Shown here: positions 3,877 to 23,681 of the stretch, piece by piece
How the letters are laid out: each line of letters begins with the position of its first letter
Numbering within the stretch: the first letter of the stretch is position 1
Origin: a virus
Direction: 5' to 3' (one strand)
DNA length: 64,000 nt
Virus record (IMG/VR): IMGVR_UViG_3300044716_001642
Location: 1 to 64,000 of that record
Made by a program: the position numbers and the translations under genes
The notes under the pieces: generated by a model
Databases searched by the model: none
Told to the model about the DNA's origin: nothing
The model's input: the letters and a program-made list of their open reading frames with translations, nothing else

Positions 3877-3943
3877 TAACTCCTTCAGTATCAACCACTT
3901 AGGGGCCCCTCGGGCCCGTAAGGCATTGCTGTTCAACACTTTA
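3877..3943 (+). repeat. 67-bp bipartite palindromic element, copy 1
   Basis: 25-bp arm / G-GGGCCCCTCGGGCCC-G / 25-bp arm. Confidence 0.9.
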
Positions 3944-3946
3944 CAC

Positions 3947-4029
3947 TTGGCGCGCTTCTTGAATACCTACTCACCGGGCCTGGCACGCTTCTTGATTGGC
4001 GCGTTACCTGGCCTGGCATGACGCCTGCT
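3947..4029 (+). promoter_or_regulatory. Three sigma54-like boxes at 33-bp period
   Basis: GG at 3949, 3982, 4015; first two end TTGA, last ends CTGC. Confidence 0.6.
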
Positions 4030-4104
4030 TACATCCCAAAAAAATAATTCAAAAAAAATAGAAATAATTCTTGCCTTCTTTGTGATCTGTGGTATCTTAA
4101 AAAC

Positions 4105-4437
4105 ATGACAACGAACAACACCACCGCAGTAAACCCGAACGAAATCCCAGCCTCCACGACCCTCGTGAAGTTTACCTATGCCAAACCGCTTAAAGGCGGC
4201 GGCGTGAGTGTAACCCAGCGCGTCATCCGCATGGGGCGCGAGGTCATCCTGCCACTTCTCGCAGGCGGCTCGACTTGGGGCAAGAGCAACAACGGAAACC
4301 GCTTTGTGGCTCTCTATAAGAAGGACACAGAACAACGCCGCGAATACCTGCAAGGGGTTGAGGAGCAGGAGGATGGACGCCTCAAGATCAAGCGTTTCGA
4401 CTTCGGCTACATCAGCGATCTCCAAGTGCTGGCGTAA
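4105..4437 (+). CDS. Hypothetical early protein, paralog of 9363..9662
   Basis: Shared LAGGS/T-WGK, YLQGV and KRF motifs; promoter TTGCCT-N16-TATCTT 6 nt before ATG. Confidence 0.75.
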   Translation: MTTNNTTAVNPNEIPASTTLVKFTYAKPLKGGGVSVTQRVIRMGREVILPLLAGGSTWGKSNNGNRFVALYKKDTEQRREYLQGVEEQEDGRLKIKRFDFGYISDLQVLA

Positions 4438-4459
4438 GCCAGCCGAAATGAGCGACTTA
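4435..4459. repeat. Isolated single 25-bp arm of the element
   Basis: TAAGCCAGCCGAAATGAGCGACTTA; its TAA is the stop codon of 4105..4437. Confidence 0.5.
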
Positions 4460-4523
4460 TGCTAATCTTTACAGCAGGAATAATCATCGGAATAATCTTA
4501 ATTAAAAACTCTTAATAAATACT

Positions 4524-4727
4524 ATGAAATCTATACTTAAAGCCAAAGTTCCACCCACAGTTAAACTCGGAAGCTGCACATTAGCAGGAATTTGTAGCCT
4601 TTACGAAACCCATAAGCAAAATATTCTCTGGGCATATAATAAAATGCTGGAAAGCGAAGGATATCAACCAGTTAGGCGTATGCCAGTTGGCACAAAATAC
4701 CAGTTTGTGGCTGGGTTTGGCTTCTGA
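4524..4727 (+). CDS. Hypothetical protein
   Basis: ATG ORF, 67 aa. Confidence 0.55.
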   Translation: MKSILKAKVPPTVKLGSCTLAGICSLYETHKQNILWAYNKMLESEGYQPVRRMPVGTKYQFVAGFGF

Positions 4728-4738
4728 TAAATAACCCG

Positions 4739-4805
4739 TAAGTCGCTGAGTATCAACGACTTAGGGGCCCCTCGGGCCCGTAAATCATTGTCAATCAACG
4801 GGTTA
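4739..4805 (+). repeat. 67-bp element, copy 2
   Basis: TAAGTCGCTGAGTATCAACGACTTA-G-GGGCCCCTCGGGCCC-G-TAAATCATTGTCAATCAACGGGTTA. Confidence 0.95.
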
Positions 4806-4809
4806 CAAC

Positions 4810-4859
4810 TTGGCACGGAAATTGAATACTAGAAACGAGGGCCTGGCATGGCGTTTGCT
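4810..4859 (+). promoter_or_regulatory. Two sigma54-like boxes, 33 bp apart
   Basis: TTGGCACGGAAATTGAAT; CTGGCATGGCGTTTGCT. Confidence 0.6.
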
Positions 4860-4936
4860 TGCGGAGAAAAATAAAAATGAAAAAAAAATCGAAAAAATAT
4901 CTGGACAAAATTAGAGTTTTAGACTACATTAAAACC

Positions 4937-5092
4937 ATGAAGCAAGAAATGGTATCCAGATACGAGTGGGCAAAAGCAAGATTTGAAAATGGCTTGATCT
5001 CTCAAGATGAATGGTTCAAACTCTGCTTTGAAATCCTTGGTGAAATCATGGAGGAGAATAAAGATGTCCTCATCCGCCTCAAGAATCGCTGA
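4937..5092 (+). CDS. Hypothetical early protein (start revised to 4937)
   Basis: TGGACA-N17-TACATT-AAAACC-ATG. Confidence 0.65.
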   Translation: MKQEMVSRYEWAKARFENGLISQDEWFKLCFEILGEIMEENKDVLIRLKNR

Positions 5093-5135
5093 AATAATCC
5101 TTGCAATAAAAATCTCAACCAATACAATTAAAACC

Positions 5136-5255
5136 ATGAAAGCAATAAACGCCATCGAAAAACTCATCCCCTACTTGTTCGCCTCTGTCTTCGCCCTTGC
5201 CATGTTCAATCTTTTCTTTGCATTCGCTGAATATGTCGAACGCCACGGGCTTTAA
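5136..5255 (+). CDS. Small membrane protein (start revised to 5136)
   Basis: TTGCAA-N16-TACAAT promoter; hydrophobic IPYLFASVFALAMFNLFFAFA. Confidence 0.55.
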   Translation: MKAINAIEKLIPYLFASVFALAMFNLFFAFAEYVERHGL

Positions 5256-5300
5256 TCTCTCAATCACCAACCAACAAAAAACAAAAAACAAAAAAACACC

Positions 5301-5483
5301 ATGACAAAAAAACACTTCACAGAAATTGCAAAGAGCATCAATCTTCAATACGCGCAAGCTGCTACAACCCAAGAGCTTAAATTGATTGAAAACATTGTGG
5401 ATGATCTCTGCTCTACCTTCAAAAATCTCAACAACTTGTTCGACAAGAATCGTTTCAAACAAGCCTGTGGAATAGAAAAATAA
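5301..5483 (+). CDS. Hypothetical protein
   Basis: ATG after C/A-rich leader; MTKKHF-type phage small ORF. Confidence 0.65.
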   Translation: MTKKHFTEIAKSINLQYAQAATTQELKLIENIVDDLCSTFKNLNNLFDKNRFKQACGIEK

Positions 5484-5489
5484 AGCGCG

Positions 5490-5556
5490 CAAACCCCTGA
5501 GTATCAACGACTTAGGGGCCCGTCGGGCCCGCAAGTCCTTACACCTCAACGCTTTA
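5490..5556 (+). repeat. 67-bp element, copy 3
   Basis: Core GGGCCCGTCGGGCCC flanked by 25-bp arms. Confidence 0.9.
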
Positions 5557-5560
5557 CAAC

Positions 5561-5610
5561 TTGGCACACTTTTTGAATACCAGAAACGAGGGCCTGGCAT
5601 GTTCCATGCT
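5561..5610 (+). promoter_or_regulatory. Two sigma54-like boxes, 33 bp apart
   Basis: TTGGCACACTTTTTGAAT; CTGGCATGTTCCATGCT. Confidence 0.55.
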
Positions 5611-5675
5611 TGTGCCTGAAAAATAAATTAAAAAAATATCTGGACAAAAACGAGAGAATCGACTACCCTAAAACC

Positions 5676-5882
5676 ATGAAAAAATACCTCAACCAAGACG
5701 AACTGATCGACCGCCTCTCTGACTATGCAGGGGAAAACCTCTACAACAAATATGACCGCTTCATGGAGCAAGCTGGCGGCAATGTCTGGCTCGCTGAAAG
5801 CCTCGCGCAAGAGGACGCAATCCTAAAGCGTATCGCCCGCGAACAGGCAAGAGAGCTGAAGGAAACTGAACGCTTCGACTAA
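5676..5882 (+). CDS. Hypothetical early protein (start revised to 5676)
   Basis: TGGACA-N17-TACCCT-AAAACC-ATG. Confidence 0.65.
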   Translation: MKKYLNQDELIDRLSDYAGENLYNKYDRFMEQAGGNVWLAESLAQEDAILKRIAREQARELKETERFD

Positions 5883-5945
5883 AAATAATCCTTGACGCGC
5901 TCGCCACTAACCACTAAACTAAAAACTCAATCAAATAACCTCACC

Positions 5946-6446
5946 ATGAAATTCACTAAAAAAACAGACCCTCTAAACTTCATCCAAGCAAAAGCTGTCC
6001 TTCAAAAGATCGAAGATCAAAAGCCCTACTTCTCTCTGACTGGGCGCATTGTTGAAAATGGGCGCGAATCTGTGAGCGGCGCAATTCACGATGAAATTCT
6101 TGCCGCCTTTCCAGAACTCGATGACCTTGTTGCCATGCACCTTTCCGACATTGACGGCAGACCCATGAACTCTTTTGAAAATGGCAAATACTGGGCAGGA
6201 TTTACAAAATGGGAAAACGGCAACGCTGAAATTCTCGCAAATCATTTTAGGATTGGAAAACAAAGATCGCAAGACCTTATGTATGAGACTCTTGTTGATA
6301 AATGCAATGACATTAAAGCTGATACTGGCGAGGATGTTCTTCCAGAAACTCTCTTCAAAGAGTTCCACGATAGGCAGTTAAGAAGATGGAAACAAGAGGC
6401 TGATAATGTCATTAAAAAATACTCTCTCGAAATCGTTGCAGATTAA
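5946..6446 (+). CDS. Hypothetical early protein (start revised to 5946)
   Basis: ACC-ATG start; globular composition; promoter upstream. Confidence 0.7.
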   Translation: MKFTKKTDPLNFIQAKAVLQKIEDQKPYFSLTGRIVENGRESVSGAIHDEILAAFPELDDLVAMHLSDIDGRPMNSFENGKYWAGFTKWENGNAEILANHFRIGKQRSQDLMYETLVDKCNDIKADTGEDVLPETLFKEFHDRQLRRWKQEADNVIKKYSLEIVAD

Positions 6447-6544
6447 CAGATTAAGGAGAATATAAAAATGGAAATCACTCTACTTCTCGGCTTGGCTCTT
6501 GGCGTCTTTCTTGTGGCAAATAATTAAATTAAAAACAAAATAAA

Positions 6545-6754
6545 ATGAAAAACAAAATCATCCTCATCTCATTCTCTCTCAACCTCTTACTGGCAATGAC
6601 TTCCTGCTCATTCTATACTCTTGCCACAATTAAACAAAACGAGAATGATCAAGTAAAAAAAGCCGCTACGCAAGTCTTTGACTTTCCAGAGATTAAGAGC
6701 GAAGAAACGCCAAAAACCCTGCCAAAGAAAAAACAGAAAGCGCGCCAATCTTAA
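6545..6754 (+). CDS. Hypothetical protein with signal peptide/TM
   Basis: Hydrophobic N-terminus IILISFSLNLLLAM. Confidence 0.55.
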   Translation: MKNKIILISFSLNLLLAMTSCSFYTLATIKQNENDQVKKAATQVFDFPEIKSEETPKTLPKKKQKARQS

Positions 6755-6764
6755 ACGGCACGCG

Positions 6765-6831
6765 TAAGTCCCTGAGTCTCAACGACTTAGGGGCCCCTCG
6801 GGCCCGCAAGTGATTGGTAATCAACAAGTTA
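6765..6831 (+). repeat. 67-bp element, copy 4
   Basis: Same architecture as copy 2. Confidence 0.95.
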
Positions 6832-6835
6832 CAAG

Positions 6836-6885
6836 TTGGCACGCTTCTTGAATACTCCGATTCGAGGCCTGGCACGGCGTCTGCT
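6836..6885 (+). promoter_or_regulatory. Two sigma54-like boxes, 33 bp apart
   Basis: TTGGCACGCTTCTTGAAT; CTGGCACGGCGTCTGCT. Confidence 0.6.
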
Positions 6886-6949
6886 TACATGGCAAAAATA
6901 AATTAAAAAATATCTTGCACTTTTTTGGGACTTGGAGTATCTTTTAACC

Positions 6950-7246
6950 ATGAACACGACCACCACCACCACCGACAACGAAATCATCAGCCTCGCCAGC
7001 GTGACTTGCGAGGAACTTGACGATACTTACTTTCAATTCGCCGACGGACTACGCGAAGAACAGGAAAGCGAGCAATACGATTCTTACCAAATCGACGACG
7101 ACAACGACGACGATCATCACGGCTTCAACCGCGAACCCCGCGAGGACAACTTCCGTGATGATGTGGACGCGGACGCAAACGCCTTGGCTGGAGCCGGTTA
7201 CGGCACGGACGAGGATTACGGATACTTCGGGGGCGACGAGTGGTGA
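6950..7246 (+). CDS. Highly acidic hypothetical protein (start revised to 6950)
   Basis: TTGCAC-N17-TATCTT 6 nt before ATG; D/E-rich. Confidence 0.7.
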   Translation: MNTTTTTTDNEIISLASVTCEELDDTYFQFADGLREEQESEQYDSYQIDDDNDDDHHGFNREPREDNFRDDVDADANALAGAGYGTDEDYGYFGGDEW

Positions 7247-7249
7247 GCG

Positions 7250-7316
7250 TAAACCCCTGAGTCTCAACGACTTAGGGGCCCCTCGGGCCCGCAAGTGGTT
7301 GGCGTTCAACGCTTTA
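7250..7316 (+). repeat. 67-bp element, copy 5
   Basis: Same architecture. Confidence 0.95.
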
Positions 7317-7319
7317 CGA

Positions 7320-7369
7320 TTGGCACGATTCTTGAATACCTCAAATTGCAACTTGGCACGCCACCTGCT
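7320..7369 (+). promoter_or_regulatory. Two sigma54-like boxes, 33 bp apart
   Basis: TTGGCACGATTCTTGAAT; TTGGCACGCCACCTGCT. Confidence 0.6.
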
Positions 7370-7444
7370 TACAGGGAAAAATAAAAATAAATAAAAATTA
7401 AAAATAATTCTGGACATTAAGAAACCTTGTGATACCTTAAATCC

Positions 7445-7684
7445 ATGACAACAACACCAACCACCACGAAAGCAATGAAGAAAAAGACAACAAACCGCTG
7501 GAGGCTGTCTATAACTTACCCGTCTGGGCATGGCATAGCCGAAACATTCGCAGTTGGCGCAACTAAACAGCAAACTCTGTATAGATGGTTTCTGCAATTT
7601 TATTGTGGCAGTGTTCCATCTGGCGCTCGCATCCCTAAAAATGCAATCTCTATCACTTGGATGAAAATTTTTCCTTCAAAATAA
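7445..7684 (+). CDS. Hypothetical early protein
   Basis: TGGACA-N16-TACCTT 6 nt before ATG. Confidence 0.65.
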   Translation: MTTTPTTTKAMKKKTTNRWRLSITYPSGHGIAETFAVGATKQQTLYRWFLQFYCGSVPSGARIPKNAISITWMKIFPSK

Positions 7685-7729
7685 TCCTTGACACCATCAA
7701 CTTTAACCATTAAATTAAAAACTCAAAAC

Positions 7730-8230
7730 ATGAATACAACAAACACCCAAACCCAAAACTCCAACCTCATCATCTCGCTCTACGGCTCTGAAATTGCCGT
7801 TGGCATCGAAGGAACACGCGAGGAAATCAACCAGCAATTCAACCGCTTTTTCAACATGGGAGGGGCAGCACCAAACTGCACTGCCGCTTTCTGCTCTGAA
7901 GACTCTGACGCTGGCGACAATTACATTCACTTCTTGAGCGACCGCTTCGCTTACTTCCTCTCTGACGAAGAGGCAATGATTAAAGCCCTTGAGACTGAAC
8001 AACTTATGATTGCAAACTCCAAACCCAATCCCGAACATAAAGGCAAGAAAGACGGCATTCTTAATGAGGTAAAAACTTTAGCCAAAGATCTTTACAAAAG
8101 TATCAAGCGCGAGAACTTCATGCTTTACAAAACCTCGGAACAGGTTGCGTTCAAGAAACTTGACGGCGGCGCACCTTCGCTGGATATGTCATCGCTCAAC
8201 TTCTTCTCGACTCACGCCCATGTGAGTTGA
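7730..8230 (+). CDS. Hypothetical early protein (start revised to 7730)
   Basis: ATG after A/C-rich leader and TTGACA promoter. Confidence 0.7.
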   Translation: MNTTNTQTQNSNLIISLYGSEIAVGIEGTREEINQQFNRFFNMGGAAPNCTAAFCSEDSDAGDNYIHFLSDRFAYFLSDEEAMIKALETEQLMIANSKPNPEHKGKKDGILNEVKTLAKDLYKSIKRENFMLYKTSEQVAFKKLDGGAPSLDMSSLNFFSTHAHVS

Positions 8231-8241
8231 GGAAATCCCCT

Positions 8242-8308
8242 TAAGTTGCTGAATATCAACGACTTAGGGGCCCCTCGGGCCCGCAAGGCCTTGCTACTCA
8301 ACGCTTTA
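8242..8308 (+). repeat. 67-bp element, copy 6
   Basis: Same architecture. Confidence 0.95.
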
Positions 8309-8312
8309 CAAC

Positions 8313-8396
8313 TTGGCACGAGAATTGAATAGCCCGATCTAAAACTTGGCACGCTTTTTGAATATCTCAATCAGAGGCCTGGCACGCTTCTTGAAT
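8313..8396 (+). promoter_or_regulatory. Three sigma54-like boxes (all TTGAAT variant) at 33-bp period
   Basis: GG at 8315, 8348, 8381. Confidence 0.55.
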
Positions 8397-8503
8397 AGCT
8401 GTGAGAGGGTTAAAAATAAAAATGAAAAAAAATAAAAAAAATCCCTTGCCTATTCTGTCAAATAAGACTATTCTCTTTCTTGTAATCAACACCACCAAAC
8501 ACC

Positions 8504-9175
8504 ATGACATTACTTGCCACCAATACCAAACTCGAAAAAGGAACCAAACTCGACTGGACGACAAAAGGTCTGTCCCTCGCTCCTGCTAACCTCTCTGGAA
8601 AACAGCTCTGCCCTCACCGCTCCGCTGGCTGTGAACTCGCCTGCCTCAACACCGCTGGCATGGGCGTATTCTCCAATGTTCAAGAGGCTCGAATCAATAA
8701 AACCCGCTTTCTGATCGAGAAACGCGCCGACTTTCTAGCGGCTCTCAACAAGGAACTCGTCAACCTCAACAAACGAGCAGGCAAGGGTCAGAAAATTGCT
8801 GTGCGCCTCAATGTTCTTTCCGATCTGCCTTGGCATAACATGATCGACATGAAGAGCTTCGAGAATCTTCATTTTTATGATTATACTCCTAACATGGGTC
8901 GCATGATCCAATTCTTAAATGGAGAACTCCCTGCAAACTATCACCTTACATTCAGCCGCAAAGAAAATAATCAGGCTAAGGTTGAATTGATCGTTGCAAT
9001 GGGCGGCAATGTCGCGGTCGTGTTCGACAAACTCCCCGAAAGCTATCTCGGCAAGCAAGTTGTGGACGGTGACGCAACCGACTTGCGATTCCTTGATGCT
9101 AAAGGGGTTATCGTCGGGCTGAAAGCCAAGGGCAAGGGCAAAAAAGACACATCGGGCTTCGTAGTAAAAACATAA
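8504..9175 (+). CDS. GP88-like phage protein (Cys motif, possible Fe-S protein)
   Basis: LLATNTKLEK, CPHRSAGCELACL, VRLNVLSD, FYDYT, YHLTFS, NVAVVF, DGDATDLRFLD. Confidence 0.65.
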   Translation: MTLLATNTKLEKGTKLDWTTKGLSLAPANLSGKQLCPHRSAGCELACLNTAGMGVFSNVQEARINKTRFLIEKRADFLAALNKELVNLNKRAGKGQKIAVRLNVLSDLPWHNMIDMKSFENLHFYDYTPNMGRMIQFLNGELPANYHLTFSRKENNQAKVELIVAMGGNVAVVFDKLPESYLGKQVVDGDATDLRFLDAKGVIVGLKAKGKGKKDTSGFVVKT

Positions 9176-9362
9176 CATGAAAGGACATACAACAAAAACA
9201 AACTATAAATGGAACTCACTATCATTCTTGGCTTTATACTTGGCATTTTTATGCTCTACTCTTCTAAAAATTAAATCAAAAAAAATTAACTTGACAAAAC
9301 AAACCAAAAAACCTATAAATAATAATATGATTAACCTCACTAAAACCAACAAAACCAACAAC

Positions 9363-9662
9363 ATGAACACAAACAACCGCAAAGCTCAACAACTCGCTTC
9401 ACTCATCACTGAAATCGTAATTAACAAGGGAACCTGCTTTGCAGGATTCACTTACAACGGCAAACGCCGCAACCTCACCCTCGGCGCAAAAATGGCTGGT
9501 CGCCTCGCTGGCGGCACTTCATGGGGCAAGACATACGCCAATGGCGCGATTGTAGAGCATAATAATAATCTTTATCTCCAAGGCGTTCCTAATAATGAGG
9601 ATACGACTGCCGTGGTGAAGCGGTTCAAACTCGCCGAAGTTGATAACTTTGTAATTGGTTAG
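9363..9662 (+). CDS. Hypothetical early protein, paralog of 4105..4437
   Basis: LAGGTSWGK, YLQGV, KRF; start could be 9327. Confidence 0.7.
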   Translation: MNTNNRKAQQLASLITEIVINKGTCFAGFTYNGKRRNLTLGAKMAGRLAGGTSWGKTYANGAIVEHNNNLYLQGVPNNEDTTAVVKRFKLAEVDNFVIG

Positions 9663-9680
9663 TGGTCAGGGTATAAGGGT

Positions 9681-9715
9681 AGAAACGCGCCTTGTGGTGG
9701 GGCGCGTTTCTTTTT
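9681..9715 (+). terminator. Intrinsic terminator
   Basis: AGAAACGCGCC/GGCGCGTTTCT stem followed by T-tract. Confidence 0.8.
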
Positions 9716-9734
9716 GCCCAGAAGCCTTTCCTCG

Positions 9735-9801
9735 TAAGTTGCTCAGCATCAACGACTTACGGGCCCCTCGGGCCCCTAAAGCATTGACGATCAACGAGTT
9801 A
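9735..9801 (+). repeat. 67-bp element, copy 7
   Basis: Same architecture; one sigma54-like box TTGGCATGGATCATGCT at 9806-9822. Confidence 0.95.
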
Positions 9802-9892
9802 CAACTTGGCATGGATCATGCTTGCATGGCAGAATAAAAATTAAAAAAATATCTTGACCAATAATCAAGGAGCTTGTAAGATCAATACTGTA

Positions 9893-10060
9893 ATGAATAA
9901 AGTTTATATTGTTTTCAAAGAAGAAGATTATGCAGCAGATAGATTGTTGTCTATTCATGCCACAGAAGAAGGAGCCAAAAAAGAATGCCAAATACGCTTT
10001 GAGCGTCTCGGTGGCGCAATAGATCCTTACTATTGGGAAGAAACAGAAGTTCAACCATAA
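9893..10060 (+). CDS. Hypothetical protein (start revised to 9893)
   Basis: MNKVYIVF-type small phage ORF after TTGACC promoter. Confidence 0.6.
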   Translation: MNKVYIVFKEEDYAADRLLSIHATEEGAKKECQIRFERLGGAIDPYYWEETEVQP

Positions 10061-10107
10061 AAATATCCTTGACCATTGTATAAAATTATAGCATACTCTT
10101 TTCTGTT

Positions 10108-10323
10108 ATGAACACCATCACTCGAACACCACAAATCAACATCGGCGACGACATCACCTTGAACGACGAGAAGGAGGGACGCGTTCTCTCCAAGACCATC
10201 GCGGGAATCTTGACCAACATTTTTGATGGCGAGGGCTACATTCGCAAAGTAAAGCCAACCGAAATCATTGCGCTTCGTCGTGGTAGCAATTTCTTCAAAG
10301 TCTCAATCAAGTCAAACATTTAA
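10108..10323 (+). CDS. Hypothetical protein
   Basis: ATG ORF after TTGACC promoter. Confidence 0.6.
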   Translation: MNTITRTPQINIGDDITLNDEKEGRVLSKTIAGILTNIFDGEGYIRKVKPTEIIALRRGSNFFKVSIKSNI

Positions 10324-10368
10324 TCTCATTTTAATTCAACCAACAAACCAACAAACCAACCAAACAAA

Positions 10369-10596
10369 ATGAAAATCACACGCAAATCACCATTGACAGG
10401 AATCACCCGCACCAAAGAAATTGATGTCACGATTGAGCAAATCTTAGCATGGGAAGAGGGCGAACTCATCCAGAACGCAATGCCGCAACTCTCGGCGGAC
10501 GACAGGGAGTTCGTAAAGACAGGGATCACAGGGGAAGAGTGGGATCAACTCTTTGGCGGCTCTGAGGAAGCAGAACAGGAGGAGGAACTTGTATGA
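10369..10596 (+). CDS. Hypothetical phage protein
   Basis: MKITRKSPLTG...LIQNAMPQLSADDREFVKTGIT; C/A-rich leader. Confidence 0.7.
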   Translation: MKITRKSPLTGITRTKEIDVTIEQILAWEEGELIQNAMPQLSADDREFVKTGITGEEWDQLFGGSEEAEQEEELV

Positions 10597-10892
10597 GAAA
10601 TACAACCTCACAAGATAAGTGGCTAATGGTCTTAAACTTAGCTGGACAACTGCATGATGTTCTCTTTGATGGAAAAGATGTTTATGACTACAATTTTCCA
10701 ACAGAAAAAATTCATAAGATTAAAACTCTCTGCGGATTAGTCATTGACCATGATACACTTGCAAAAATTTGTTCAGAGAAAATGATTGGTAAGAAAGTTG
10801 TATCTTCTGCATTTGATGGTAGATGGATGACAGAGGATGTGAATACGCCTTTCACTCTCTCGGTAGCTTCTGAAACCTACTGGTCTTCATAA
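10593..10892 (+). CDS. Hypothetical protein
   Basis: ATGA overlap with previous gene. Confidence 0.65.
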   Translation: MRNTTSQDKWLMVLNLAGQLHDVLFDGKDVYDYNFPTEKIHKIKTLCGLVIDHDTLAKICSEKMIGKKVVSSAFDGRWMTEDVNTPFTLSVASETYWSS

Positions 10893-10956
10893 AGCGTTAA
10901 GCCCCAGCGGTTTAGGGGCCCCTCCGGCCCGTAAGTGGTTGGTATTGAACATGTTA
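10890..10956 (+). repeat. 67-bp element, copy 8 (degenerate)
   Basis: Core GGGCCCCTCCGGCCC with 25-bp arms. Confidence 0.8.
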
Positions 10957-11092
10957 TGCATGCGTATACATATACCCATAAGTGTATGCAGAACTATCCC
11001 CGCCCTCATTATTTGCATTATTTACGGCCACCTAGGCCGCTATTTGCCCAAATTTTTTTTCTTTTTTTTGAATTTTTATTTTGAAATTTTTA

Positions 11093-11121
11093 TTGACAAT
11101 GGTGTAAAAAGACACTATATT
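11093..11121 (+). promoter_or_regulatory. sigma70-like promoter upstream of RNA locus
   Basis: TTGACA-N17-TATATT. Confidence 0.7.
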
Positions 11122-11200
11122 AGTTTTATAAGGTAGTTGGTTCCCGATGATCCAATGGGACTGGGCTTACTCGGTCGAAAACAAAATCGGAAATTGATTT

Positions 11201-11228
11201 TTGACATTTTATTTTTGTTTGGTAGATA
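11201..11228 (+). promoter_or_regulatory. sigma70-like promoter upstream of ncRNA/tRNA unit
   Basis: TTGACA-N16-TAGATA. Confidence 0.55.
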
Positions 11229-16226: not shown

Positions 16227-16493
16227 TTAGTAATCTATTTCAATGTAGATGAGCTGTCCTTCTTTGGCAAGGTTTTTATATTTCTCTTTGATCTCTGGCG
16301 TGTCCTTGTATGTGTCTTGGACTTTCCATACCTCATCGAAGTTTTCTTCTGTGAGTGTTTTTACTTCGTAAGATTCGCAGGAATTTTCATAATCAGAGAA
16401 GTGATCCTCCAGTTGGCTCAATAGTTTCTGAATGTATTCAGATTTGGTTTTGCCTTCTGGAATCCGTTTGATTTGTGTTTCGAGCATCCCCAT
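16227..16493 (-). CDS. Hypothetical protein
   Basis: ATG ORF after C/A-rich leader. Confidence 0.65.
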   Translation of the reverse strand: MGMLETQIKRIPEGKTKSEYIQKLLSQLEDHFSDYENSCESYEVKTLTEENFDEVWKVQDTYKDTPEIKEKYKNLAKEGQLIYIEIDY

Positions 16494-16662
16494 TTTAGGT
16501 TTAGTTTGGTTGTATTGTCGGTTGAGTATTTAATCTAATTTAAATTTATTGTTTTGTCAAGCTACCATTTTATGAAGGTTGATAGAATGATTCCAAGAAT
16601 TACGATTAGTGCGAATGACGGGTTTGTTGTTTCCATTTTGGTTTGTTGTTTTGGTTTTGTTG

Positions 16663-17379
16663 TTAGTATTGAATCTCATCTGTAAAGTCTCCCTCCTCAA
16701 GAACATAAGACCAGTAGCGCGAGTTTGTATAGCCTTGTTTTCTATCCCAATAAATGCAACGCGCAACATAGCAGGAAACATTATACTCGAAACACATTCT
16801 GACCCAATGATGCTCGATCTCTTGATATTTGTTTCTGTGCTTTGTTTGATCCAGTCCGTAAAGTTGGAATAGGTGAGTATCAAGGCAAGTGATCTCTGCT
16901 TCTGATGGGTAGAGCATCTCGATGCTGAAGCTGGATTTTGCCATACCCAAACCAAGAATAGTATCCTCGATACGATTGCGATATTCAGTCCAAGACTCGC
17001 CTTCTGCTTTCTTGTAGAAGGATGGGTTGCTCCAATACTTGATTGAGAACTGCTTGATAAACTTTACGCGATTGTTATACAGCCCTGCGCCACTCTCCCT
17101 CAAGCGATCCTCAAGAGCCTGCCAGTTGTTCATCCACTCCCACCAGTTTTTGATGAGAGAATACGCTTTGATATTGGACTCCCAAGAGGTATGGACGCTT
17201 GTAAAGGCGAAAAGGAAACGCTGAAAAATTTCCGTATCGTTGATTGGCTTGAGAGCAGACCAGTAAGCGGTCTGGAAGTCGATCTCATTTTTTGTCAATG
17301 AAGCAAAGAAAGCCTCTGCTTCGGTTGCGTCTATTCGGGCGATTGTGGTTGTTGGTAGTGTAGTGGTTGACATACTCAA
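16663..17379 (-). CDS. HhH-GPD DNA glycosylase, thermostable Ogg (N-glycosylase/DNA lyase)-like
   Basis: FLFAFTSVHTS, LEDRLRESGAGLYNNRVKFI, HhH ILGLGMAKSSF, CLDTHL, KYQEIE. Confidence 0.7.
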   Translation of the reverse strand: MSMSTTTLPTTTIARIDATEAEAFFASLTKNEIDFQTAYWSALKPINDTEIFQRFLFAFTSVHTSWESNIKAYSLIKNWWEWMNNWQALEDRLRESGAGLYNNRVKFIKQFSIKYWSNPSFYKKAEGESWTEYRNRIEDTILGLGMAKSSFSIEMLYPSEAEITCLDTHLFQLYGLDQTKHRNKYQEIEHHWVRMCFEYNVSCYVARCIYWDRKQGYTNSRYWSYVLEEGDFTDEIQY

Positions 17380-17437
17380 TCAAGGTATGCGTTTTTGATG
17401 GATGCGTCAATGAATTTTTTATAGAATATTCCTCGTG

Positions 17438-17504
17438 CAAGTTGTTCAACCAGAAGTACTTGCGGGCCGGAGGGGCCCGTAACTCACTGAGTTACAAGGC
17501 TTTG
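17438..17504 (-). repeat. 67-bp element, copy 13 (inverted)
   Basis: Core GGGCCGGAGGGGCCC on + strand. Confidence 0.85.
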
Positions 17505-17506
17505 CG

Positions 17507-17698
17507 TCATGAATTATACTGCAACCAATCTAAGATTTCTTGATAGTAATTATCATAAAGGAGAGCCCTTGCCTCTTCCAGCTCGCAGGTATTAACCAAA
17601 TCCAATACAAAATCAAAATTCTCTACATTAGGCATTTGACTTGATGTCAAATAAACTATAGCCTTCTTAACGCTTGAATTGATTAGATGTTGTTGCAT
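17507..17698 (-). CDS. Hypothetical protein
   Basis: ATG ORF, 63 aa. Confidence 0.55.
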   Translation of the reverse strand: MQQHLINSSVKKAIVYLTSSQMPNVENFDFVLDLVNTCELEEARALLYDNYYQEILDWLQYNS

Positions 17699-17772
17699 AT
17701 TTTTTTTTTTTTTAATTTAAATCTGGCGTTTTATTTTGACAGGATGACGCCCAACCCCCAATCCTCAAATTC

Positions 17773-18354
17773 TCAAGATAGCTTGAATACTCGGGCTGGC
17801 TTGCCCTTGCCTTGTGGCTTTGTGCCAACAATCTGTATTGTGTCTGGATTCTCGCGCTGAATCTTTGCAATCTCATTATTGATAACGAACTTCTTTACTC
17901 CAAGTTTAGCAGCGATATGCCCTACTGTAAACTCTTCATGGCGAGGCAATTGAATTGCGTGCTTCTTTGGGCGACCCGCGCCCACTTTTGTATGTTTAAC
18001 ATTCTCAATGCTCATTTTCTTTACTTTCTTTGTTTTAGGTTTTACTTCTTTTTCTTCTTCTTTTTTTTCATTTAAAATTGTATTTAAAATTTCTTTTGGA
18101 ATTGTTATCATGCCCTCCTTATTGATTGGTAGCTTTTGCCTCCCCACATCATAAGAGACCATTGTGGCTGGAGCGAAGAAGTCAACGAATGGTGAATAGC
18201 CCCCTGCATCTGTTTGTTTGTATCCCTGCACCTTGCAGGTTGACTCGCCGCCTCTGATGAGATACATTAGCTTGAATGTATCTTTAAGAGATTCTACGAT
18301 GAACGGAGCACCATCTTGCAGATTTTGCAATTGAGTTGTTCTACGCTGTTGCAT
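17773..18354 (-). CDS. Hypothetical protein with possible C-terminal HTH (start revised to 18354)
   Basis: GRPKK hook; FTVGHIAAKLGVKKFVINNEI; overlaps ruvB end. Confidence 0.6.
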   Translation of the reverse strand: MQQRRTTQLQNLQDGAPFIVESLKDTFKLMYLIRGGESTCKVQGYKQTDAGGYSPFVDFFAPATMVSYDVGRQKLPINKEGMITIPKEILNTILNEKKEEEKEVKPKTKKVKKMSIENVKHTKVGAGRPKKHAIQLPRHEEFTVGHIAAKLGVKKFVINNEIAKIQRENPDTIQIVGTKPQGKGKPARVFKLS

Positions 18355-19351
18355 CAGTAAACCCTCCCTCATTCTTGAAAACATACTTGCGGAGATACTC
18401 TTTGCCGTTTGCTGTGATCTCCCTGCCGCCAGCTTTAATCTGCATCAGACCTTTCTTGACAAGATAGGACTCAAACTCAAGCATGATGGCTTGCCGTGTG
18501 AACCCTGTCTTTGCTGACAAGTTGTTGAGGGAGCAACCAGTAGGGAACTCGCTCAATGCCTTGAGAACTTGAACCTCGGAACTCTCAAGACCCATAGGCA
18601 TGATACCAAGAACCTCGCAGAGAGTTTCCCAATGTTTCTGGCAAAGTTTTGAAACCTTGCCGCCCTTCATATACTGGACGATGTTATCCTTTGCCATCAA
18701 TACAGCGTTACGCGCATTGCCACGGCATACCGAAGCAACATGAGGCATTACATCTTCTGGAATCTCCAAGCCCTCATCAAGATTCTCGCGGACAATCCTT
18801 CCAAGGTCTGAATACTCGTATTCGTCCATGTGAAGAATACGGCAACGATCTTTGAAAGGCCCCACCAATTTTTGCGGATCAGTAGTGGCGAATACAAAGC
18901 TCACCTTCTTGAAGTCAAAAAGAATTTCTGAATCTTCATATCGAAACAAGTTACTATTCTTCTTGTTTGGATTAAGGATTGTAAGCAGTGAAGTTTGAAC
19001 GCTTTCTGGAAGAGCATGACACTCATCAAAAAAAACTGTCAAAGTTTGGTCATTAACATACTTGAGAACAATGTCTTCCACGAATTGTCTCACATTCTTA
19101 ACTGTGCTGGAATTGACTGTCAGCAAAGGCTTTGGGCGACCTCCCATAGCGTCGAGTCGAAGATTCCTTGCGAGGGAAACAGCGAACTCTGTTTTGCCAG
19201 AACCTCTACCGCCTACCAAAAGAATGGTTGGCAGAATTTGAGTCTCGCGGAAAGAGTTGAGATAAAAGCGAAGTTGCGCTTTCAATTTGTTCTGTCCGAT
19301 CAAGTGGGCGAAATGATCTTTCTCTTCTTGGGTTGTGTTTGTATCGTTCAT
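18341..19351 (-). CDS. ruvB: Holliday junction branch-migration helicase RuvB-like AAA+ ATPase
   Basis: LIGQ, Walker A GGRGSGKT, FFDECHAL, ATT, PFKDRC, GNARNA, ESYLVKKGLM...GREIT winged helix. Confidence 0.85.
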   Translation of the reverse strand: MNDTNTTQEEKDHFAHLIGQNKLKAQLRFYLNSFRETQILPTILLVGGRGSGKTEFAVSLARNLRLDAMGGRPKPLLTVNSSTVKNVRQFVEDIVLKYVNDQTLTVFFDECHALPESVQTSLLTILNPNKKNSNLFRYEDSEILFDFKKVSFVFATTDPQKLVGPFKDRCRILHMDEYEYSDLGRIVRENLDEGLEIPEDVMPHVASVCRGNARNAVLMAKDNIVQYMKGGKVSKLCQKHWETLCEVLGIMPMGLESSEVQVLKALSEFPTGCSLNNLSAKTGFTRQAIMLEFESYLVKKGLMQIKAGGREITANGKEYLRKYVFKNEGGFTDATA

Positions 19352-19415
19352 GGTTTAATATAGTAGTTGGTTTTTATACAATAGTCAAATAATTTTATTC
19401 TAAATCCGAATAATT

Positions 19416-19724
19416 TTATAGATTGATTGTCGCGTCTAATAGAGACTCATACTTCTTCCATGCCCTGCCCAATGCAATTGAATTTCCAACTTTCCTGCTG
19501 TAGTTTTCCTGCTCAGAGCAAACTGCCTTGCCAGACACATTGAATGTTTTATCTGGACTGGTTAGCTGAATTTCGGTAATGCCCCCCTTGGCTGAAACCT
19601 CGGAAGAACTTCCATTAAAGCGATCACGCAAAAAATAATTGCGCTGATGCAGGACGCGAACTTTCCAGCCGCGCTGCCGTAGATTTTTGATTGACAATGT
19701 TGAGTTTGGTATTTCTGGTTTCAT
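19416..19724 (-). CDS. Hypothetical phage protein
   Basis: GKAVCSEQENYSRKVGNSIALGRA motif. Confidence 0.7.
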   Translation of the reverse strand: MKPEIPNSTLSIKNLRQRGWKVRVLHQRNYFLRDRFNGSSSEVSAKGGITEIQLTSPDKTFNVSGKAVCSEQENYSRKVGNSIALGRAWKKYESLLDATINL

Positions 19725-19736
19725 ATTTTTATTTAA

Positions 19737-20072
19737 TTAAAATGGGTTTTCGTCAAATGTTTCCAGCTCTGCCTGTGGGGAAATATGGTCGTCATCCTTT
19801 GGCTCTTCTTTTACTTTGTTAGCCTTTGGAGAATCCGGCTCATCATTTCCGAAGTCAACAAGTTGCATCTCTGCCTTACCGCTACTCACGCAATGCGTGA
19901 CAACATCCAAGTTAGAACTAACAGCCTTCCCGTTAAGTCCAACAAGTTGTGCGTATCGGATAGACAAAATGACTTTTGCATCTGGTTTCAATACTCTGTT
20001 TAGTTCACTCAGTTCAACTTGCATGAAGCTAACTGACCCTGGCTTTCTTCCTCGTTGTTTTGACATACCCAT
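19737..20072 (-). CDS. Hypothetical protein
   Basis: N-terminal RGRKPGS hook; acidic tail. Confidence 0.65.
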   Translation of the reverse strand: MGMSKQRGRKPGSVSFMQVELSELNRVLKPDAKVILSIRYAQLVGLNGKAVSSNLDVVTHCVSSGKAEMQLVDFGNDEPDSPKANKVKEEPKDDDHISPQAELETFDENPF

Positions 20073-20120
20073 AATATAAATGAATTTTAATGTGAATGCA
20101 AGTATAAAGTATAGGATTGT

Positions 20121-20187
20121 TAAGTTATTGATACTGAGGCGCTTGCGGGCCGGAGGGGCCCGTAACCTGTTGATATTGAATGACTTA
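20121..20187 (-). repeat. 67-bp element, copy 14 (inverted)
   Basis: Same architecture. Confidence 0.9.
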
Positions 20188-20225
20188 TAAAGGTGCCAGT
20201 TTGCAACCTTAAAGAATAAAAATAC

Positions 20226-20255
20226 AAAAAAAATGGGAGGCTTGCGCCCCCCATT
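20226..20255 (-). terminator. Intrinsic terminator after rIIB
   Basis: Minus strand AAATGGGGGC-GCAA-GCCTCCCATTT followed by T-tract. Confidence 0.75.
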
Positions 20256-20280
20256 TCTTTCTTCAGTATGAGTTTATCTC

Positions 20281-21174
20281 TCAATCTTCTTCCTCGTCCC
20301 ACGCAAGTTCATTGTAGGCATCCTCATATCCTTTGCTGTATGCCTCGTCCAAGTCGTTTTCGGTGTAGAGAGGTTCACCATCAGAGGAAACAACAGAGTG
20401 CGAAAACTCTTCTGCCTCAACCTTGCGGTCTGTGTATTCGCGCAAGACCTCCATCTGGCAAACGCGCATCTTGGCGTTGTTGTAGTCTTTGGGAACTGCG
20501 ATAACATCAGCAGGATTCACCTTGACAATAACAATTCGATCAGTCGAATCGGAGTTAGAACCGAAGTGTGGCAGGTAGCTCCATCCCGCACAATGCAATC
20601 CATTTGAGCAAGTCCTGTCTCGGTCTGGATCAACCTCGTTGCGCTTCATCGTTGGCGTTGCGCCAACAGAGTAGTCAACAGAGTTGGAGTGAATGTCCTT
20701 CCAGTTGCCGCGAATCTTTTTCCACGCGAGGAAGTGACCATCCTCGGTGATTGGGATTTGGTTTGCCTCAAGGAACAAGTAGAGTTCTTGAACTGCCGTG
20801 TAGGATGGATTCTCCATCACATTCTCAAGGAACTTGACAAGTCCCGTTGCGTCCAGTCCCTCGCGCATAATGTCGAGGATGCGTTCGCACATAACATTGT
20901 GGAGAGGCTTGCCATCATACAAAACCTCGCCGCCAACAACTTCGACGCTACCATCGAAGGTCTGGTTGATCTGATTCTTGATTGTGGCGAGTCCTGCCGC
21001 TTCTGCATACTTGCCCTCTTTGCAGAGTTGGAGAATGTCGTTGAACTTGGGGTTTGAGTTGTCGATGACCGCAGTATCCTCGGAGAAGATAAGCGTGATT
21101 TGCTCCTTGGACACGAAGCGTCCGATGAGAGCTTGAGTTGCGTATGGGTTGGTCTGGTTGTTAGTTGTGTTCAT
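20281..21174 (-). CDS. rIIB: rIIB-like protein (start revised to 21174)
   Basis: NPSYTAVQELYLFLE, PITEDGHFLAWKKI, KDIHS, RNEVD...TCSNGLH, VKVNPADVIAVP. Confidence 0.85.
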   Translation of the reverse strand: MNTTNNQTNPYATQALIGRFVSKEQITLIFSEDTAVIDNSNPKFNDILQLCKEGKYAEAAGLATIKNQINQTFDGSVEVVGGEVLYDGKPLHNVMCERILDIMREGLDATGLVKFLENVMENPSYTAVQELYLFLEANQIPITEDGHFLAWKKIRGNWKDIHSNSVDYSVGATPTMKRNEVDPDRDRTCSNGLHCAGWSYLPHFGSNSDSTDRIVIVKVNPADVIAVPKDYNNAKMRVCQMEVLREYTDRKVEAEEFSHSVVSSDGEPLYTENDLDEAYSKGYEDAYNELAWDEEED

Positions 21175-21240
21175 AACAAAACCAATATGCACCTTTTTGA
21201 TTGGCGTGTCAAATTTTTTTTCAAGTTTTTTTTCAATACG

Positions 21241-21307
21241 TAAGTTGTTGGTAGCCAAGGACTTGCGGGCCGGAGGGGCCCGTAACTCGTTGGCGTTGAT
21301 ATACTTA
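21241..21307 (-). repeat. 67-bp element, copy 15 (inverted), between rIIA and rIIB
   Basis: Same architecture. Confidence 0.9.
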
Positions 21308-21326
21308 CATGAGCTGGGCGAAAAGC

Positions 21327-21360
21327 AAAAAGAAGGGGCGCGGCAACCACTCCGCGCCCC
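21327..21360 (-). terminator. Intrinsic terminator after rIIA
   Basis: GGGGCGCGG/CCGCGCCCC stem, T-rich tail on minus strand. Confidence 0.7.
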
Positions 21361-21398
21361 CAACCACCACTAACCATGATTTTTATTTAATTTTAATT

Positions 21399-23516
21399 CT
21401 ACAACGCATCAATCATGTTGATATAATCTGTGAGCGCTTTCTTGTAAGTGTCTGGATTGTATTCGTCTGAAACTGGCAAGACGAGAGGATACTTTTTAAT
21501 GATCTCGTTTACAAGATTCGTAAACTCACTCATTTCCTTGTCGATAGATGCTTGAGCATCAGCAATGAATGACTTATTGGCAAGGCGAATGAGGCTAATA
21601 GTTTTACTATCCATGCACTTCGATTGATCTTGAATGATTGGCTTGATTGTAGCCATTGCTTTGCCAACAATATGATTGGCAGGGAGAAGCGTAACCAATG
21701 ACTTGAGAGTTTCTGGCAACCCGCGCATTTCCCAGTTTTTAGAAAAATCGCGGAACTTACTCTTGAAGTTGTCCCAAGAAATAGCATTGATTCCCTTGTT
21801 GATCTGGTCTTGAAATTTTTTGTCTTGAACAAGATTGCAGAACTTAACAACAGGCTTGCCGTCGAAAGTCGAATCATTGAACTTGTCATAATCGGCTTTT
21901 GGAAGGAACAAGGCGGCAGTCTTCTGCTTTGATTCGTCAGAGAGAATCGCAATGATCGGGTCAACATAATTTGCTTGAAGTTGATCGTAAACCTTATTCG
22001 ATACCGAGGGGAACAGGATGAACTTTTCTGTGTCCTTGTGCGAGGCGGCGTTGTAAAACTCAACGCAATCGTGAAACCCATAGTTGCGACCAGAGCGCAT
22101 ACGGAATGTGCCTTTGGCAGTTGCGCCAGTTGAAGTCGAGGTCTTACCCTTGCTTGGAACTTTAGGCAGGGAACTTGTCAACACGAACTCTCCCACCCAT
22201 CCAGTTTCTTGAATGAACTTGGCTTTTTCAGAATCCTTGAGGATGTAGAAAGCGTATGAGGCATAGCTATCATTCTTTTTCTTTTCGAGGATGACTTGCT
22301 TTGCGCGACCAACGCCGCCCACCTTCAAATCGTCCAAGAATAAAAATGCTTTTTTATTCGGCTCAACATTCTTCTCTCCCTCGCTAACATTGATTTTCTT
22401 GTTCCATGATGCCGTGGCATACAGATTAACCTTTGCATCCTTAACCTGCATTGCAGTTGCGGTCAAAGGCTTGCCGTTCCAGTTGAGCTTGAGCGTATCT
22501 GGTAGGAAGGTGAAAGATTCGCGGAGGCTTTTCAGCTTGAGCTTTGCTTCCCAAGTGTTGCCCTTGAAAGCGTCCATGTCGGCTTGCATTTTTGGCAGGA
22601 AGGAGTCAACGATCTGTTCCAGCTTGGTGAACATCCTTGTCATCGTGAGGTCATCCAGTTGGATTGCCTCGCGGGATGGAGTGATGCTGTATTCACCGAT
22701 TGGAACATGGATAACAAGATTGCATCGGAGAAGTCTATCGAACTTGGCGAACTTTTTATTCTCCAAGAGAGTTTGAACAGGTAGGCTGTAACCCACGCCT
22801 CCCATGACAATGACAGGAGAACCACTGCCCTCGTAGATTGCGAAGTTGCTTGTGCCGCCATCAAAGGTCATAGCTTGAGGCGTGAAGTTGATATTCTTGG
22901 CAATGCCATCACAGAAAACTCGCGGCTTGATTGAGAAGAATCGGTAAGCTCTTTCGACCTTCTCGTTGAATTGAGAAACATGACGATCAGGGCAAAGGAA
23001 CTTTACCTCAAAGCCATTGCGTTCAGTAGTTGCCTCGCTCTTAATCAGTCGAATGTCGGGAAGTCCATTTGATTGCAGGGAGATGAAGTATTGCGACTTT
23101 GTGCCATTGAATCGGGAGATTGCTTGGAAGTTATTCACAAGCGAGCAAAGCGACCACTTGCCAACGCCGAACCCGCCAATGAGGTCATTGTTGCCGCGCT
23201 TGCTGGATGCCCCAATGATTGAGTAAATGCGGATCATTTGATCGTGAGAGATACCCACGCCATTGTCAACGAAACGAACATTGCCGTCGAGTCGTGAGGG
23301 AAGATGCAATTCCCATCCGAGGTCTTGTGTCCCTGCCTCGATAGTAGCATCAACGCAATTTGCACCCACTTCACGAAGGACTGCCATCGTTGGGTCTTGA
23401 TAGAGATTGGCAATCATGCGGAAGAAGTGAGCGATGTTCTTCTCGTCGATACCTACGGAAATAGTCTCGAAGTTGCCGTTGAATTGAACTTTGTTGGTTT
23501 TGTCTGCGATAATCAT
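21399..23516 (-). CDS. rIIA: rIIA-like protein with N-terminal GHKL ATPase
   Basis: LYQDPTMAVLREVGANCVDA, DNGVGIS, GGFGVGK, TPSREAI; upstream of rIIB. Confidence 0.85.
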   Translation of the reverse strand: MIIADKTNKVQFNGNFETISVGIDEKNIAHFFRMIANLYQDPTMAVLREVGANCVDATIEAGTQDLGWELHLPSRLDGNVRFVDNGVGISHDQMIRIYSIIGASSKRGNNDLIGGFGVGKWSLCSLVNNFQAISRFNGTKSQYFISLQSNGLPDIRLIKSEATTERNGFEVKFLCPDRHVSQFNEKVERAYRFFSIKPRVFCDGIAKNINFTPQAMTFDGGTSNFAIYEGSGSPVIVMGGVGYSLPVQTLLENKKFAKFDRLLRCNLVIHVPIGEYSITPSREAIQLDDLTMTRMFTKLEQIVDSFLPKMQADMDAFKGNTWEAKLKLKSLRESFTFLPDTLKLNWNGKPLTATAMQVKDAKVNLYATASWNKKINVSEGEKNVEPNKKAFLFLDDLKVGGVGRAKQVILEKKKNDSYASYAFYILKDSEKAKFIQETGWVGEFVLTSSLPKVPSKGKTSTSTGATAKGTFRMRSGRNYGFHDCVEFYNAASHKDTEKFILFPSVSNKVYDQLQANYVDPIIAILSDESKQKTAALFLPKADYDKFNDSTFDGKPVVKFCNLVQDKKFQDQINKGINAISWDNFKSKFRDFSKNWEMRGLPETLKSLVTLLPANHIVGKAMATIKPIIQDQSKCMDSKTISLIRLANKSFIADAQASIDKEMSEFTNLVNEIIKKYPLVLPVSDEYNPDTYKKALTDYINMIDAL

Positions 23517-23614
23517 GGTTTGGTTTGGTTGGTTGGTTGAGTCTCTAATATGCAGGTTTTTTATATCGAGGTCAAGGGATTTTCTTAAAAAAGTTTTAGA
23601 ATCTTTTGCTCGCG

Positions 23615-23681
23615 TAAGTTGCTATCGTTCAAGGACTTGCGGGCCGGACGGGCCCCTAAAATGCTGATAATCAACAACTTA
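23615..23681 (-). repeat. 67-bp element, copy 16 (inverted)
   Basis: Core GGGCCGGACGGGCCC on + strand. Confidence 0.9.

Follow-up and report, generated by a model that had tools for sequence, protein, structure and literature searches.

The early region of the phage represented by IMG/VR virus record IMGVR_UViG_3300044716_001642 is punctuated by sixteen copies of a 67-bp element, in which two 25-bp palindromic sequences (dyads) are held around a G+C-rich core. The window analysed here is the first 64 kb of this 134,417-bp record, which is judged to be about 70% complete. The best reading of the element, to which a probability of roughly 0.55 is assigned, is a docking module of fixed geometry for a DNA-bending protein of the host integration host factor (IHF) family. 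Such a module would mark the upstream boundary of the individual early transcription units and would supply the homology for a cassette exchange similar to that of the promoter early stem-loop (PeSL) elements. The binder is most likely host IHF, a member of the DNABII family. A preliminary description of this DNA had listed the copies and compared them with PeSL cassette boundaries; the match to the IHF consensus, the orientation of the copies and the membership of the element in a very widespread family are new.

Anatomy of the element and its match to IHF sites

Motif matching and a weight matrix place every one of the sixteen copies at the coordinates originally listed, each 67 bp long. The central motif has 18 matches with two or fewer mismatches, compared with 0.26 expected. 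The weight matrix, built from the copies and run over the whole 134,417-bp record, recovers the same sixteen at 68–100 bits and nothing else at its 25-bit reporting threshold; the early observation that none occurs beyond 24 kb is therefore true of the entire record. The invariant length also stands, as 52 copies from six contigs align without gaps, with the dyad centres 42 bp apart. Each copy has two 25-mers with a G+C core of 17 bp between them, and none of these parts varies in length. The same positions (A2, A3, T9, A17, T23 and T24) are invariant in both 25-mers of this alignment, and the element is therefore composed of two copies of one palindromic module. The core has the invariant pattern GG.CC....GGCC. 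Its initial description as GGGCCC-N3-GGGCCC is exact for 7 of the 16 copies and needs one mismatch in the other nine.

The 25-mer also exists alone. A solitary dyad at 23883–23907, to which no strand is assigned (26.4 bits), has neither the GC core nor a partner and is conserved in the closest relative (G001) at position 711 with 25.3 bits, so the 25-mer is an autonomous unit. This dyad adjoins about three imperfect direct repeats of some 35 bp each (window 23883–24100), and together they sit upstream of the last element, where 420 bp are non-coding. Such an arrangement could be an iteron-like region; Tandem Repeats Finder scored no repeat in 23650–24250.

The conserved positions of the 25-mer read YAA-N4-YTGA-N3-TCAR-N4-TTR. 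This pattern holds the IHF consensus WATCAR-N4-TTR twice, on the top strand (positions 13–25) and on the bottom strand (13 to 1), with the central W common to both. The four half-sites of the 52 copies agree on average with 8.2, 7.4, 7.5 and 7.2 of the nine specified positions, and the right half of the first dyad reaches at least eight of the nine in 44 copies. The background 13-mers of the genome mostly agree at three or four positions, and eight or more are found in 0.2% of them.

In IHF complexes, the two kinks are 9 bp apart with WATCAR between them, and TTR belongs to the flanking DNA that the protein body clamps (10.1101/382655). A T-to-A change at the centre of TTR decreases the affinity more than 100-fold (bioRxiv 10.1101/382655). 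In the 25-mer, W occupies the dyad centre, and TCAR (+2 to +5) and TTR (+10 to +12) follow it on both strands; the invariant positions include the TT of TTR and the mirror of this dinucleotide. With W at the centre, the A|R steps (8|9 and 17|18) are therefore 9 bp apart, with TTR at ±10 to 12. The geometry of an IHF site, that is, kinks 9 bp apart and a flanking TTR, is thus found in the 25-mer, with the kink presumably at the A|R step, a placement based partly on the 1IHF structure. The A/T-rich tract that some IHF sites have in their non-consensus half is absent, and the mirrored consensus stands in its position. No HU/IHF homologue was found: neither the record nor any of five related contigs has a PF00216 match. 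Sigma-54 promoters are commonly accompanied by IHF sites, and sigma-54-like boxes lie directly downstream of seven copies, an arrangement that was counted in favour of IHF.

The proposed mechanism combines these features. Each 25-mer would act as a symmetrised IHF site, in which the expected kinks are separated by 9 bp and both flanks have a TTR clamp, and the rigid G+C-rich core of 17 bp would keep the two sites exactly 42 bp, or four helical turns, apart. The module borders every early transcription unit on its upstream side. It comes shortly after the preceding stop codon, and it is followed either by a sigma-70-type promoter at 10–50 bp or immediately by sigma-54-like boxes. The folding of DNA next to the early promoter may stimulate or insulate this promoter and hinder read-through from the previous unit. 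At the same time, as a conserved patch common to all units, the module may allow an exchange of cassettes by homologous recombination, as has been proposed for PeSLs.

The tetranucleotide GGCC, of which two are kept in every element, is otherwise rare in this phage. Outside the early region of the record it is depleted about 3.3-fold (43 occurrences, with 144 expected from trinucleotides), and nearly all GGCC of the early region are inside the elements or beside the sigma-54-like boxes. The hexamer GGGCCC occurs 23 times in the early region (window 3800–23700) and never in the remaining 110 kb.

Position in the early transcription units and at cassette borders

The copies have an orientation. 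The first ten are on the plus strand and the last six on the minus strand, matching the strand of the flanking genes. The preliminary description placed the copies after a stop codon or terminator and usually before the next promoter, and the mapping of stops, three terminators and promoters agrees with it. In 10 of the 16 copies, no more than 12 bp separate the element start from the stop codon of the gene before it, and in one of these the two overlap by 2 bp. Only three copies have a strong intrinsic terminator ahead of them, those following rIIA, rIIB and the gene ending at 9662. Most copies have a sigma-70-like promoter downstream, at a distance of 10–140 bp.

The seven copies nearest the start of the window share one downstream order: one to three sigma-54-like boxes (TGGCAY-N5-YTG), an A-rich tract and a sigma-70-like promoter. 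The box arrays (3808–9826, plus strand) have a 33-bp phase and lie outside the 67-mer, docked 4–5 bp past copies 1–7; reversed sequence yields 0–1 matches. The best −12 GC is that of the last box of each array, and the arrangement of element and boxes is seen in every related contig. In this group, all on the plus strand, copy 1 (3877–3943; 91 bits) is followed by such boxes, copy 2 (4739–4805) lies 12 bp after the stop at 4727, and copy 3 (5490–5556) lies 7 bp after a stop. Copies 4 (6765–6831) and 5 (7250–7316) border a replaced cassette described below, copy 6 (8242–8308) is followed by three boxes, and copy 7 (9735–9801) is preceded by a terminator-like hairpin.

Most of the copies 8–16 lack boxes; an A/T-rich tract comes directly after them, and then a promoter that resembles TTGACA-N17-TATAAT. 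The well-scored promoters of this kind begin 17–39 bp past the element. Copy 8 (10890–10956, plus strand) is the one with the 2-bp overlap, with the stop codon of the open reading frame (ORF) 10593–10892. An example of the early promoters is the sigma-70-like sequence at 12583–12611 (plus strand), 30 bp downstream of copy 9 (12486–12552, plus strand). Copy 10 (13670–13736) is the last on the plus strand. Copy 11 (14651–14717, minus strand; 68 bits) has convergent genes on either side, and its orientation is weakly defined. The other minus-strand copies are copy 12 (16128–16194), with TTGACA-N17-TACATT beginning 17 bp downstream; copy 13 (17438–17504), located by the weight matrix; copy 14 (20121–20187), downstream of the rIIB terminator; copy 15 (21241–21307), between the rIIA terminator and the rIIB promoter; and copy 16 (23615–23681), upstream of the rIIA promoter. 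A helical phasing between element and −35 box was considered and set aside: the distances of 17, 27–28 and 39 bp are suggestive, but many of the copies are orthologues and others misfit.

The borders of gene gain and loss were located from chained blastn alignments with the two best relatives, using the gap edges inside the element region. In each of the two relatives, 8 of 24 gap edges fall within 25 bp of an element edge, compared with 2.0 expected (binomial P of about 5e-4). The element at 4739 aligns to two elements of the closest relative, 1,052 bp apart, which is an exact indel of one cassette. The cassette between the elements at 6765 and 7250 is occupied by unrelated DNA in the relative, and homology stops exactly at the end of copy 4 and restarts exactly at the start of copy 5; part of the cassette gene 6932–7246 has a counterpart elsewhere in the relative. 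Homology also restarts 0–2 bp before the elements at 12486 (2 bp) and 14651, and copy 10 is missing from the closest relative along with its cassette. Other gap edges lie 40–130 bp downstream of an element, past the promoter. The conserved unit is therefore the element with its promoter, and the variable unit consists of the genes. Some indel edges are away from any element. The breakpoint comparison suggested in the preliminary description thus gives a clustering of breaks at element edges, and the PeSL-like cassette boundary, supported by this clustering, the one-cassette indel and the cassette replacement, holds as an analogy.

Breadth of the family and competing explanations

The element is shared with relatives. 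The contig IMGVR_UViG_3300020160_002556 carries 15 copies at about 85% nucleotide identity, IMGVR_UViG_3300046777_002930 carries 14 at about 70%, and four further related contigs have 3, 3, 1 and 3 copies. The longest relative is IMGVR_UViG_3300046777_002930, at 63.6 kb, and there too the copies occupy only one stretch of about 20 kb. A looser pattern, composed of one right half-site, a gap of 12–40 bp and the start of a second dyad, matches at least 119 stretches in IMG/VR. The columns left unspecified by this pattern recover the signal in 145 distinct instances (T1 in 94%, A2/A3 in 97%, T9 in 99% and T23/T24 in 97%). The spacers of this superfamily differ in length (modes of 25, 17, 23 and 33 bp) and in sequence, and have in common about 80% G+C. 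A hairpin as a universal feature of the spacer was rejected: the 33-bp type has one beyond its composition (z = −2.6), and the spacers of 23 and 25 bp have a z of about 0. What stays constant is the 25-mer; within this large family, the 67-bp element is the subtype whose spacer measures 17 bp.

A blastn search of GenBank phages with the 67-mer returned nothing relevant, and four cultured phages having the GP88-like gene lack the palindromic 25-mer. As for a host repeat family, the core motif has 19 matches in 185,579 species genomes and the element is in none of them. The only published sighting found is a promoter logo of Stenotrophomonas phage DLP6, reached by a full-text search for the right half-site (PMC5349666). 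In the DLP6 genome (KU682439.2), there are 31 sites with an A-tract followed by ATCAA-N4-TTA, which is the same right half-site. Most of them form tandem pairs with a spacing of exactly 25 bp, and behind each pair come a GC hairpin and TTTACTT-N17-TATAAT; the T-run of the hairpin overlaps the −35 of this promoter (KU682439.2). The original paper lists 25 'phage promoters' predicted by PHIRE, 22 of them 'in groups of two' (PMC5349666). These published promoters are probably the tandem sites, since number and pairing agree. The DLP6 units resemble the element in the right half-site (ATCAACGACTTA-like), the pairing, the orientation with transcription and the position ahead of a GC hairpin and an early-type promoter. 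They differ in being asymmetric (A-tract plus consensus) and directly abutting as repeats 25 bp apart, and their hairpin follows the pair, whereas the GC core described here lies between the two sites. The authors read the sites as promoters, with no link to IHF or to cassette borders (PMC5349666).

The identity of the binder can be approached from this distribution. The main rival to host IHF is a phage-encoded protein, for which the dyads would be operators, because the conservation exceeds the needs of IHF and the record is incomplete. A dimeric regulator of this kind, for example one shutting off or timing all early units and perhaps encoded in the missing 30%, is considered possible, yet clearly the less favoured choice. 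The symmetric invariant positions would suit any homodimer, the conservation goes beyond the IHF consensus (CGAC in N4, G4/T5), and the elements are confined to the early region of a record that is about 70% complete. Against such a regulator, the motif also occurs in DLP6, a T4-like phage of 56% G+C with only about five proteins in common with the present phage. In view of its presence in such different phages, a conserved host protein is a simpler explanation than a shared phage regulator. None of the roughly five common proteins looks DNA-binding. The best conserved is an acidic protein of 75 amino acids (10369–10596, plus strand; phrog_20898, function unknown), which is 62% identical to AAY80_048 of DLP6 and about 50–63% identical to ORFs in four other element-bearing contigs. 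It was rejected as a shared binder, being acidic, belonging to no DNA-binding family and lying near elements in 4 of the 117 loci listed.

A clustering of all ORFs around the elements gives no other candidate. It covered 118 loci, that is, 117 superfamily stretches among the matches listed and the early region described here, and no protein family is present in most of them, the widest occurring in 37. The commonest neighbours in these listed loci are PhoH (37), a GP88-like protein (PF17338; 30, including window 8504–9175) and DUF932 (28), and a 229-amino-acid sigma-70 region-2 protein and an L5 gp82-like protein are found in 26 each. The contacts expected at about ±3 and ±11 from the dyad centre would moreover suit a protein that wraps the DNA better than a helix-turn-helix dimer.

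Several points weigh against the docking of host IHF. The match is to a consensus that is short and degenerate. The conservation exceeds what IHF would need: most copies, and also the superfamily at large, have CGAC as N4. In TCAR, the A is better conserved than the C before it, a difference that the logos of Escherichia coli IHF do not show. The spacers of the superfamily (17, 23, 25 and 33 bp) have no common helical phase, hence no single bend geometry is conserved. The record, moreover, covers only about 70% of the genome, and a binder encoded by the phage could be located in the remainder. The clustering of breakpoints, finally, describes an association and not a mechanism, as a conserved intergenic island attracts the ends of alignments anyway.

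A function of the element in RNA is the next explanation, and an unlikely one. In this scenario, the central GC hairpin ends the upstream transcript or protects its 3′ end, and the 25-mers are accessory hairpins or processing sites. The position agrees with this: the elements start up to 12 bp from stops, most units have no separate terminator, the orientation matches that of transcription, and the GC hairpins of the 33-bp-spacer subtype and of DLP6 carry a T-run like that of an intrinsic terminator. The core hairpin is stable, at about −11.5 kcal/mol, whereas the 25-mers alone fold weakly (−3.8 and −1.8 kcal/mol). The lack of covariation speaks against folding. Base pairs were counted on the 52-copy alignment under two fold models, with partners shuffled among copies as a control. 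The model of three hairpins has 73.5% of the cells paired, compared with 74.0% after shuffling, and that of one long palindrome (attC-like or cruciform) has 70.5%, compared with 70.4%; neither model exceeds the shuffles, and no helix shows covariation, the central one included. The mean RNA folding energy is −24.15 kcal/mol, compared with −24.16 ± 0.47 after the shuffling of columns among copies. In addition, no U-tract follows the hairpin in this phage, the 23- and 25-bp spacers show no more hairpin potential than their composition predicts, and no covariance model of Rfam matches any element at E ≤ 1. The symmetry thus resides in the columns and not in co-evolving pairs, which indicates a duplex-DNA site for a protein and not an RNA or cruciform structure. 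The view that the arm substitutions are non-compensatory and favour protein recognition over RNA folding, taken in the preliminary description, is upheld over the 52 copies. The core hairpin could still have a secondary role as an RNA terminator or stabiliser, because the element follows stop codons and is oriented.

The boxes downstream of copies 1–7 lead to another proposal, in which the twin palindromes form an upstream activating sequence (UAS), an enhancer for a sigma-54 activator that drives the adjacent −24/−12-like boxes. The palindromes are indeed paired at whole helical turns and stand upstream of such boxes in 7 of the 16 copies and in all relatives. Such boxes are, however, missing at the other 9 copies and in most of the superfamily, the first box is only 4–13 bp from the element, and neither sigma-54 nor a true sigma-54 activator is encoded in the record, which has generic AAA+ matches only. 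The AAA+ protein at 18341–19351 was ruled out as an activator, being generic and RuvB- or clamp-loader-like. An enhancer of this type is very improbable. Site-specific recombination, either on integron attC-like sites or on the tyrosine-recombinase cores parsed as 9+7+9 in the preliminary description, is the least credible of all, for although the cassette-like position behind ORFs, the exact element-to-element indel and the cassette replacement between elements would agree with it, the 134-kb record (about 70% complete) has no Phage_integrase match (PF00589) at E ≤ 1, the strand pairing lacks the compensatory change that attC would require, the central 7 bp, the would-be overlap, vary between copies, the invariant positions (2, 3, 9 | 17, 23, 24) misfit the parse, and several indel edges are away from elements.

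Related systems and further features of the early region

The docking module proposed here has parallels in several known systems. The PeSLs of T4-type phages combine a promoter with a terminator stem-loop (PMC2839356, PMC4122927). They are similar to the present element as repeated composite intergenic signals that border small early-gene cassettes, with indels and replacements between close relatives mapping to them. A GC stem-loop and a downstream sigma-70-type promoter are also present here, but they lie 10–140 bp apart and the promoter is a separate part. PeSLs have neither the paired 25-bp palindromes nor the fixed 67-bp geometry, whereas here the dyads are the dominant conserved parts. 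The phage itself is not T4-type, and its rIIA is 28% identical to that of the nearest cultured phage.

The IHF sites of lambda attP (H′ and H1) share the WATCAR-N4-TTR consensus with the same spacing and the invariant TT of TTR. The position upstream of early promoters is also known for IHF, as lambda pL and Mu Pe are IHF-stimulated early promoters of phages. The classical sites are asymmetric, with a consensus half and an A/T-rich half, whereas the consensus is here mirrored on both halves, and the predicted sites form rigid pairs around a GC core, repeated 16 times.

In Escherichia coli, bacterial interspersed mosaic elements of type 1 (BIME-1), also represented by the reiterative ihf BIME (RIB) and repetitive IHF-binding palindromic (RIP) elements, consist of two repetitive extragenic palindromic (REP) sequences flanking one IHF site. 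These repeats, which belong to the REP and BIME elements (PMC3333891, PMC2817692), resemble the present element in being intergenic mosaics that lie at the 3′ ends of transcription units and combine GC-rich palindromes with an IHF site. The order is inverted, with two IHF-type sites flanking one GC core in the phage, and those repeats are chromosomal, whereas this element is in none of the 185,579 species genomes. Integron attC sites are likewise imperfect palindromes directly behind cassette ORFs, but attC involves a folded strand with compensatory changes and an integrase, neither of which was encountered here.

A broader interpretation, which is speculative and should be read as doubtful, would make the twin-dyad modules a general and so far undescribed 'boundary element' system of large phages. 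In this interpretation, double U-turns of fixed geometry, whether formed by a host bender that the phage has hijacked or by some conserved factor of phage origin, would insulate each early cassette topologically, set the strength of early promoters and act as the preferred crossover points for cassette exchange between unrelated phages. The subtype described here would also recruit the sigma-54 holoenzyme via the docked −24/−12 boxes. If this were true, early control would be sigma-54-dependent or sigma-54-sequestering; to our knowledge, no such control has been described for a phage. If the docking-module reading is right, many uncultured large phages would build their first-expressed region from standard units, in each of which a few genes and a promoter are joined to a docking module for a host protein. 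Such units would account for the organisation of early transcription without dedicated terminators and for the easy shuffling of early 'ORFan' cassettes between phages. The pair of 25-mers around a GC spacer offers a signature for early regions in metagenomic phage contigs, and DLP6 on Stenotrophomonas maltophilia, in which the half-site was taken for a promoter, is a cultured system for a direct test.

The element-bearing stretch of 3.9–23.7 kb encodes rIIA (21399–23516, minus strand), rIIB and many small genes. Its G+C content is 41–46% in most 2-kb windows and 38% at 12–14 kb, compared with mostly about 31–35% in the rest of the window. In front of several early genes, a CA-rich leader (runs of CAACC/AAACC) takes the place of a Shine-Dalgarno sequence, for example at 16060–16090 (minus strand), 13790–13820 (plus strand) and 23517–23555 (minus strand). 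The genes near 20072 and 21145 (minus strand) start a few bases past the −10 box and therefore look nearly leaderless. The coding strand at window 4000–10000 has a strong excess of A over T (AT skew of 0.15–0.23) with long spurious antisense ORFs, and naive gene calling by the longest ORF chooses the wrong strand in this interval.

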